Assembly: GCA_964016885.1 (NCBI GenBank)
Contig: OZ024764.1
Location: 24,490,001-24,554,000 of the forward strand
Direction: 5' to 3'
From: Eledone cirrhosa
Taxonomy: Eukaryota
Length of the DNA: 64,000 nt
A program made the position numbers and the translations under genes. Shown here piece by piece: positions 50,965 through 52,145 of this stretch. How positions within the stretch are numbered: position 1 is the stretch's first letter; every line of letters begins with the position of its first letter. A model generated the notes under the pieces. That model was not told where the DNA came from and did no database searches. It saw only the letters and a list, made by a program, of their open reading frames with translations.

Positions 50965-52145
50965 GATTTCTTTATTTGCCACCAGGGCACAAAAGGTAGG
51001 GACAGATACAAGGGGGGAAGTTTACATATAATTAACGAGTACAAAAATATAACAATGAAATAACAACAACAAACGAAGTCCTCAATAGGGAGGGGGTATT
51101 AACATGGGTCGCACACACCCCGGAAAAAATGTGCAACCCTTCTCCTCAGGAGCACAAAGAGTAGGTGCTTCCCTCGTCTTCTCTTTTTCCTCTTCTTTCA
51201 CCTACAGGCTGATATAGAGAGAAGACCCATTCACTCTGGCCATTCTCCCTACTTTCACCCACCTTTCATAAAACTTGCTGGGGTAGAGCACCAAAGTGAG
51301 GAAAAATGTGTGTAGCTTGGAAACAATTGGCGACACAGAGTATTTCCTGGCCGTCAATTGATCCTTCATTAGCACCGTTATATTCCCATAGAGTGGCCCT
51401 TTTTGTATGAACGATATATCACTCCACACATTTTTTAGGACCAGGTCAATCTCTTTTTGGGATAATTGAGCTGGTTTCCTTGTTATGTTGGAAATTGTTC
51501 TGAAAGATATCGTTCTTAGGGTCGTGTCTCTTTTGATTTCTTGTGGGGAGGTGATTGTGAAGTCTCCTCCTTCTTTGAAAGTTACATACTGTTTTGCTTC
51601 CTTCATCTTTTCTCTCAGAGTTGTAATGTCCAGTTGCTTGCAGGTCTGTGTTTTCCGGACCGCCTGTGCAAAGGAGGCACCAGTAGTGGGTTCGCTTTGT
51701 TTGGTGTTATCGTTATTGTTTCCTTGGTTGGTGTTGTGACTATTGCTGTTATTGTCGTTGTTGTTTTTGTCTGCGTTTATGTGACTTTCTGGGTTTTCAC
51801 CCATTTTTACAAATTTTTCTTTTAATTCCGTGTTCCATGTTTCTTTTGCAGAAGTCAGGAGGGAAGACTTAGAGCCTTGTGCTTCTAGCTTCTCTGTATC
51901 ACCTTTCTTAGGGGGCATGGCTTTCTCGTTAGGATGAGATGTGAAAATTCCGTCCATTTCTATCAGTTTGCCGTAATAAATTTTTAAATGGAAAATAAAT
52001 AAACTCAAAGTTTGACGACCCAGGCAAAGGGTTAACGTATATTATAGTACATAAACAATAAATCAAAACTCACTTTTGAGTAAGTAAATCCAACTCGGTA
52101 GCCGAGCTTGTTCACACACGTCAACACACGTCTCTCGTATACGAG
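50965..52145 (-). mobile_element. Internally deleted non-autonomous Tx1 derivative, copy 3 (1181 bp)
   Basis: Complete 5' UTR and 3' UTR of copy 2; ~4.4 kb missing; same array junctions. Confidence 0.95.
51202..51959 (-). CDS. In-frame fusion of the ORF1 N-terminus to the last 29 aa of ORF2
   Basis: MDGIFTSHPN...SKLHTFFLTL|VLYPSKFYERWVKVGRMARVNGSSLYISL*; no knuckle, EN or RT. Confidence 0.7.

Follow-up and report, generated by a model that had tools for sequence, protein, structure and literature searches.

An internally deleted, probably one-off or low-copy derivative of a site-specific Tx1-like LINE in Eledone cirrhosa

The mini copy, its relatives and their target

The window, that is, the whole stretch of 64,000 nucleotides of Eledone cirrhosa DNA analyzed here, contains three copies of a LINE whose architecture points to the Tx1 clade. 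The subject of this study is the reverse-strand copy, referred to as the mini copy, and its parts, its surroundings and its two relatives are as follows.

50965..52145, reverse strand: mini copy, an internally deleted (bipartite) Tx1-like LINE of 1181 bp (blastn against copy 2, ends checked)
51958..52145, reverse strand: 5' UTR of the mini copy; the first 126 nt are predicted to form a long stem with inner hairpins, and a 23-nt GC hairpin near 51990 is missing
51296..51957, reverse strand: ORF1 codons 1-221, comprising the N-terminal region and the first RRM-like domain (comparison with copy 2, structure model)
51291..51298, reverse strand: deletion junction, with a 3-nt microhomology, 5 nt probably from ORF2, and a 26-nt skip
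51202..51292, reverse strand: last 29 codons of ORF2 and stop, in a frame shared with ORF1
50965..51201, reverse strand: 3' UTR, which contains an AATAAA close to its end, a local hairpin of 11 bp and sequence complementary to the ORF1/ORF2 boundary of the full-length element
52146..52998, reverse strand: 5'-side array of the 72-bp minisatellite, 12 units
48585..50964, reverse strand: 3'-side array of the 72-bp minisatellite, which divides into 32 rows when cut at the unit start, variants of 60 and 132 nt included
48460..48584, reverse strand: rest of the MITE-like host repeat, 81-86% identical across the three loci, with a TTAA-ended terminus at the copy 2 locus
8292..13923, forward strand: copy 2, the full-length relative, with a 577-aa ORF1 at 8493-10226 that has two RRMs and a CCHC knuckle, and an ORF2 with a frame switch
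1..3308, forward strand: copy 1, the 3' portion of a relative that is interrupted by the start of the window, with 12 differences from copy 2 in 3308 nt

The first 850 nt of the mini copy (52145..51296) correspond to copy 2 8292-9154 (885/949 identical by blastn, a count that includes gaps and one flanking repeat unit), and its last 328 nt (51292..50965) correspond to copy 2 13596-13923 and to copy 1 2981-3308; 4441 bp of copy 2 are missing in between. The bipartite structure, coordinates and loss of about 4.4 kb described in an earlier note on this DNA are thus confirmed, as is the open fusion frame (51957..51202, 251 aa), which ends in the last 29 codons of ORF2; the alternative two frames of the 3' part reach a stop after 8 and 11 codons. 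ORF1 was described there as extending to ...HTFFLTL before its in-frame union with the 29 ORF2 codons, and the union stands, but the ORF1-derived part stops in codon 221 and L222 belongs to the junction. Both UTRs were also described as kept; both termini are indeed present, but the 5' UTR lacks the 23-nt GC hairpin that is found in copy 2 and in sequencing run X1. The element begins with a perfect 12-nt palindrome (52134-52145 in the mini copy and 8292-8303 in copy 2).

In copy 2, ORF2 has matches above cut-off to PF03372 (APE endonuclease), PF00078 (RT) and PF13966 (C-terminal zinc-binding), and the endonuclease frame is interrupted within a run of G near 10437-10455 by a switch that is either real or a homopolymer or assembly error. 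The solved protein closest to ORF2 is human LINE-1 ORF2p (E 3e-51), and the second-best ORF2 match, at 67% identity, is from Argonauta. The model of the ORF1 core (residues 90-340, pLDDT 91.6) predicts two RRM-like domains followed by a CCHC knuckle; the zf-CCHC match (E 0.007) is under the Pfam cut-off, and the ORF1 profile matches CCHC proteins. An unindexed homolog search produced 137 relatives of ORF1, and a word-seeded search none among 1512 candidates; five of the seven relatives looked up come from Octopus or Argonauta. An ORF1 with RRM domains and a CCHC knuckle is characteristic of the Tx1 clade. No named Tx1 reference is present among the 120 ORF2 matches listed, all but 2 of which are unnamed or hypothetical, and the parent appears to be a Tx1-like LINE on the basis of its architecture, its site specificity and, in part, motifs that we take to be those of the clade. 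The parent LINE has been active recently. Octopus vulgaris has 13 recently active L1-Tx1 families, for which the available portion of the report gives no target details (PMC13282606). No published description of the parent family was found in a search to which Repbase, Dfam and subscription papers were external, so that the family may already be catalogued.

The insertion base in the 72-bp unit is identical at all three 3' junctions and at both visible 5' junctions, those of the mini copy and copy 2, and the proposal that the mini copy occupies the same target site as its relatives is therefore upheld. Seven bases of the target are absent, a loss that the 72-bp period of the array makes indistinguishable from a 65-bp duplication. 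In each of the four runs aligned (X1, X2, X3 and X15), a joint corresponding to the empty site is present, with 7-8 letters between in X3 and 7 in X15. Beyond the 3' arrays, about 130 bp are common to the three loci at only 81-86% identity; because these flanks are old and diverged, the three loci result from separate insertions rather than from a recent duplication. Each of the five 72-bp arrays present (3309-4384, 7693-8291, 13924-14349, 48585-50964 and 52146-52998) flanks a LINE copy; the arrays have one consensus unit, and they seem to be homogenized or to travel with the LINE.

At the copy 2 locus, the right end of the host repeat is bounded by TTAA, the termini in the window being otherwise degenerate or missing. 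In addition, 728 loose-end reads of X15 located beside the unit give a consensus TTAA-ended terminus that is complementary to the copy 2 right end (agreement 0.78). From these sequence features we infer that the host is a short TTAA-ended MITE, the 5' part of which expanded into the array. No Rfam match identifies the minisatellite as an snRNA, tRNA or 5S target. A dispersed repeat (7561-7678, 45711-45827, 58395-58458 and 62139-62210) abuts the 5' array of copy 2, at the expected left end of the host.

Elsewhere in the window, a 3' fragment of another non-LTR element lies between copies 1 and 2 (5812-6486, reverse strand; zf-RVT, E 8e-6), containing what we take to be a restriction-like endonuclease motif. 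A 16.6-kb AT/GT-rich microsatellite tract (22232-38833) is followed by 3.6 kb of (CAC)n (38905-42475), and RT fragments near this tract are presumably RTE-like. Two weak tRNA-like Rfam matches may represent SINE heads.

The deletion junction in the assembly and in public reads

The 22-nt junction motif occurs once in the window, with 0 occurrences expected from 100 shuffles. L222 comes from 3 nt (51295-51293) that have a direct match to neither flank; the 6-mer over them is identical with copy 1 2949-2954, just upstream of the 3' breakpoint (2 matches in 3308 nt), and the loose-end consensus of runs X1 and X3 has two more matching letters at that 6-mer. As judged from this one junction, its simplest reading looks like two microhomology jumps, the first traversing about 4.41 kb at a 3-nt microhomology and then copying 5 nt of ORF2, and the second skipping 26 nt at a 2-nt microhomology. 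It follows arithmetically that the first jump alone is out of the ORF2 frame and that the second restores it. With a prior of 1/3 for an in-frame join, the shared frame is most likely a product of chance.

The jumps could be template jumps during insertion or could reflect end-joining repair afterwards, routes that are indistinguishable here. Short templated pieces are typical of polymerase theta end joining. In spliced and reintegrated LINE copies, as described for human L1, the deletion is bounded by GT...AG; splicing was considered as the cause of the present deletion and rejected, since copy 2 lacks a GT donor behind the 5' breakpoint and has a purine-rich tract before the 3' breakpoint. 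A long-range RNA duplex, described below, was also rejected as a cause, its 5' arm being about 1 kb from the 5' breakpoint. For the origin of R2 SIDEs, the accessible part of a published study discusses both RT template jumps and non-homologous recombination (PMC3414825).

Part of the element words is present in 13 of the 17 runs listed, with a maximum of 0.49 in any run; copies 1 and 2 alone account for 0.35 of the element words (401/1151). Four of the 17 runs were aligned (X1, X2, X3 and X15), and X4-X14, X16 and X17, of which X7-X13 hold small shares, were left out. RNA runs are not represented among the listed holders of element words, and this has no bearing on expression. The runs may derive from related species, as about 4 of 30 letters in their ORF2 loose ends are unlike those of copy 2. 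Among the 24 pieces listed of 1993 from the four runs, none bridges the junction, a search that is biased in that Logan contigs drop rare variants and that cannot prove absence. The junction was found in 0 metagenome and 0 viral contigs, which is uninformative for an animal repeat.

Loose ends at 51292 run on as ORF2 in 1 contig of X1, 2 of X2 and 18 of X3, and those at 51296 run on as ORF1 in 2 contigs of X3 and in 535 of the 545 X15 reads covering 51310. It should be recognized that X15 is a reduced-representation library, in which all five of the read-end piles listed coincide with AATT sites, and that the 535 reads end near copy 2 sites 9205-9212, which the mini copy lacks. The resulting figure of at most 10/545 therefore understates the mini copy, because the fragment from which these reads come has a far end that matches a restriction site absent from it. 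At 51917 and 51445, which lie on fragments that the mini copy retains, its share of 5' ends is less than about 7% and 11% (about 49 and 47 molecules, respectively), bounds that apply to its own lineage and not to an older family without those letters. Overall, the reads lean against a high-copy family with the junction but are compatible with a small one.

A deletion that happened once and was then multiplied passively at the DNA level, by unequal exchange or conversion between the 72-bp arrays or by cut-and-paste movement of the MITE-like host, would be in keeping with the presence of five arrays with one consensus in host repeats of only 81-86% identity, which indicates that sequence moves between loci, and with three copies within 52 kb. 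Cut-and-paste of the host has been proposed for the composite Tx1 elements of Xenopus. However, the host termini are degenerate at the mini locus, and a second copy of the junction is seen neither in the window nor among the pieces listed from the four runs, so that we regard passive spread as improbable.

The reads also provide information on the ancestry of the mini copy. An X2 contig over 51296-51971 has 13 letters unlike those of the mini copy, 11 of which are listed in ORF1, and thus sides with the mini copy at at least 8 of the 20 ORF1 positions where the latter differs from copy 2. Of the X15 sites with at least 20 reads, 6 of 8 show 17-31% letters other than that of copy 2 (4 synonymous and 2 nonsynonymous sites), and the other two, both nonsynonymous, show 0/98 and 1/94 and look private to the mini copy; these counts are of letters other than the reference, which may include a third letter, and the sorting into private and shared leaves out three of the four synonymous sites in the uncovered middle. 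The 10-nt duplication in the 5' part of the mini copy is also present in X1 and X3, and its 3' UTR letter at 51134 in X3, so that copies 1 and 2 are derived at those positions. Position 51310 lies 14 nt from the break. Of its 545 X15 reads, 140 do not have the letter of copy 2, and at least 130 of these continue into intact ORF1, assuming nested read sets; because they combine the non-copy-2 letter with an intact ORF1, the mini copy appears to come from a minority subfamily whose sequence is unbroken at that point.

Other deletions are apparent in the same runs. In one X2 contig, at depth 41, 144 nt are missing from the 5' UTR (51970-52115); this skip, not seen in X1, X3 or X15 and with ends that are not GT-AG, is another deleted variant of the family. 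In X15, a further internal deletion variant is represented by 18 reads with 4 starts, which lack 51 nt of 3' UTR sequence (51026-51078).

The possibility that the mini copy is an assembly chimera of two repeats has to be considered in such a repeat-rich region, where the junction is not among the pieces listed from the four runs. This is the least credible of the explanations, as distinctive alleles occur in both halves of the mini copy and distinctive variants in its arrays, and the junction has the anatomy of templated microhomology.

Coding capacity, RNA folds and mobility

In ORF1 codons 1-220 (660 nt), the mini copy and copy 2 differ by 20 substitutions, with a dN/dS of 0.40 (0.34 over 210 codons) that is below 1 with P 0.04-0.05 against neutrality. 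The earlier note had proposed dN/dS on the fused frame as a check, and the ORF1 part does give a ratio below 1, but this is the same as that of the parent (0.37 for ORF2 of copies 1 and 2) and is not assignable to the branch that followed the deletion. Because of this match, the signal belongs to a family with active sources and not to the fusion. The contention that the mini copy has many more substitutions relative to copy 2 than copy 1 does calls for correction, since it compares mostly different regions, copy 1 having no ORF1 in the window; in the 328 nt common to the three copies, there are 5 differences between the mini copy and copy 1, 6 between the mini copy and copy 2, and 1 between copies 1 and 2 (5 versus 1, Fisher P=0.22). 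A frame is still open after 20 random substitutions with P=0.49 (20,000 trials), and the lack of a stop was rejected on that ground as a sign of selection. The step from divergence without a stop to a mobile subfamily likewise does not hold, given this probability, the 1/3 prior for an in-frame join, the parent-like dN/dS, and the fact that much of the divergence is family polymorphism or change in copy 2. A break at a domain boundary was also rejected as proof of selection: the test is post hoc, and the modeled core (90-340) covers less than half of ORF1.

The fusion retains 221 of the 577 ORF1 codons and has lost RRM2 and the CCHC knuckle. In the structural model, the break at residue 221 coincides with the end of the last strand of RRM1, so that the domain stays whole; RRM1 has a pLDDT of 92-96 and the tail about 50, and the strand that crosses the junction is not trusted, the model having been built with homolog rows that extend past it. 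The best structural match is the La RRM, with 82 residues aligned at an rmsd of 2.4 and a Z of 8.6, a score close to what is considered common. Across 53 sequences, only two near-invariant residues are positioned, P220 and G224, and these are changed or lost. An exact look-up in the protein collection gave 0 of 4, the fusion protein being absent from it, and the word-seeded homolog search found no near relative among 182 candidates. The suggestion that a truncated ORF1p may be encoded is sound in principle, as the predicted fusion keeps one folded RRM; on the model, a folded RNA-binding fragment is possible and a working substitute for ORF1p is unlikely.

Selection on the fusion protein itself, for example as a dominant-negative ORF1p retained by the host, might be read from the dN/dS below 1 (P 0.04-0.05), the position of the break at a domain boundary, and the restoration of the frame by the second jump. 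However, the ratio is that of the parent, both private changes seen are nonsynonymous, and the protein has a tail of low pLDDT and neither an exact counterpart in the collection nor a near relative among the 182 candidates; this explanation is highly improbable.

The first 126 nt of the mini 5' UTR have a fold z of −3.68, with 0 of 200 shuffles as stable, as compared with −0.90 for the counterpart in copy 2; five differences of the mini copy are at paired positions of its own best fold, a coincidence that is favored by fitting the fold to that sequence. The local 3' UTR hairpin is intact in the mini copy, whereas copies 1 and 2 carry a mismatch. Between 50900 and 52300, no Rfam ribozyme or RNA family matches near its gathering score (3 chance-level matches), although the 5' UTR is structured. 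The exact termini, the 5' UTR fold and the 3' UTR hairpin indicate, at most, competence for mobility. Moreover, with 850 + 328 nt retained, the fragment does not define the minimal cis signals, as had been proposed.

In full-length copies, the 3' UTR segment 13716-13758 (51130-51172 in the mini copy) is complementary to the ORF1 stop/ORF2 start region, 10193-10234 (81% over 43 nt). The predicted duplex, at −75.6 kcal/mol, is the strongest among 162 tiles (next best −52.2), and none of 200 shuffles equals it; its 5' arm is lost from the mini copy. The 3' segment is also predicted to form the local hairpin and may therefore act as a switch. If formed, the duplex could couple ORF2 translation to full-length RNA.

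The earlier note interpreted the mini copy as a trans-mobilized bipartite subfamily. In such a non-autonomous, SIDE-like family, ORF2p from full-length copies would bind the 3' end of the short RNA and insert it at the same target, the RRM1-only protein being a helper or a by-product. The exactness of both ends and of the target junction, the stability of the 5' UTR fold (z=−3.68), the intact 3' UTR hairpin, the open ORF and the whole RRM1 are all favorable to this interpretation, and such families are known from site-specific LINEs, according to the available part of PMC3414825. Against these must be set the absence of a bridging piece among those listed from the four runs, the presence of the private letters in only 0/98 and 1/94 reads (bounds of 7% and 11%), the occurrence of the non-private alleles in copies that are intact at the breakpoint, and coding statistics that are those of the parent. 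Thus, the deleted copy with both termini at the family target stands, but a second copy of the junction is lacking in the window and in the listed run pieces, and we consider a trans-mobilized subfamily unlikely. The more specific proposal of a young, lineage-restricted family with a retained one-RRM ORF1 fusion, mobilized in trans into the MITE minisatellite and no longer carrying the long-range duplex is, if anything, marginally more doubtful.

The mini copy is probably a deletion derivative, unique or of low copy number, from a minority subfamily of a site-specific Tx1-like LINE. The target would have been cut by the APE endonuclease of ORF2 and the copy made by target-primed reverse transcription. 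The mini copy may yield a transcript and an RRM1-only protein, with no sign that it acts as a source of new insertions. The one-off reading is supported by the uniqueness of the junction in the window, the absence of a bridge among the listed pieces of four runs and the continuation of the loose ends into full-length sequence; it is weakened by the retention of the termini and folded 5' UTR, the whole RRM1, the ORF1 dN/dS below 1 and the bias of the read tests.

Comparison with known systems

The R2 SIDE and R2/R1 hybrid SIDE of Drosophila resemble the mini copy in having the 5' and 3' ends of a LINE joined by an internal deletion at the target of the parent (PMC3414825). As far as they are described in the accessible part of that study, SIDEs are multi-copy, old and non-coding and have a 5' ribozyme, whereas the mini copy is a single copy that differs by about 1-3% from the parent family, retains 221 codons of ORF1 and matches no ribozyme in Rfam. 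HeT-A, HAL1 and Ag-Sponge, like the mini copy, combine ORF1-derived coding sequence and LINE ends with the loss of ORF2, but they encode a counterpart of ORF1p and belong to the Jockey, L1 and CR1 clades, whereas the mini copy is without RRM2 and the zinc knuckle (PMC5786205, available text). The same text lists ORF-less bipartite families in RTE, Ingi, Vingi and R2 and ORF1-bearing ones in Jockey, L1 and CR1; "Tx1" does not occur in its main text as available (PMC5786205). By analogy, the mini copy resembles what might be a first step toward a SIDE or an ORF1-present bipartite LINE. Internally deleted L1 insertions obtained in cell culture are, like the mini copy, one-off products, made during retrotransposition and forming no family, in the available account (PMC3414825), but they differ in clade and host and are not site-specific.

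A one-off deletion matters little, such copies being expected wherever a LINE is active. If the mini copy were multi-copy, bipartite non-autonomous LINEs would be extended to the Tx1-like clade, a small step beyond the list in the available text of PMC5786205, and a true family would provide a short RNA for testing trans-mobilization and the RNA signals that Tx1 needs.

The Tx1L site of Xenopus is in an internal tandem repeat, with a short duplication. In the parts of the literature available, Tx1L within Tx1D is, like the parent family described here, an APE LINE at one site inside a non-autonomous element, there of the piggyBac type (PMC4494074, PMC1950540); the present parent differs in being from a different phylum and in inserting into the 72-bp unit of a short repeat with TTAA ends. 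The firmer outcome is the parent family itself, a recently active LINE that targets one base of a MITE-borne minisatellite and so echoes Tx1L/Tx1D of Xenopus.
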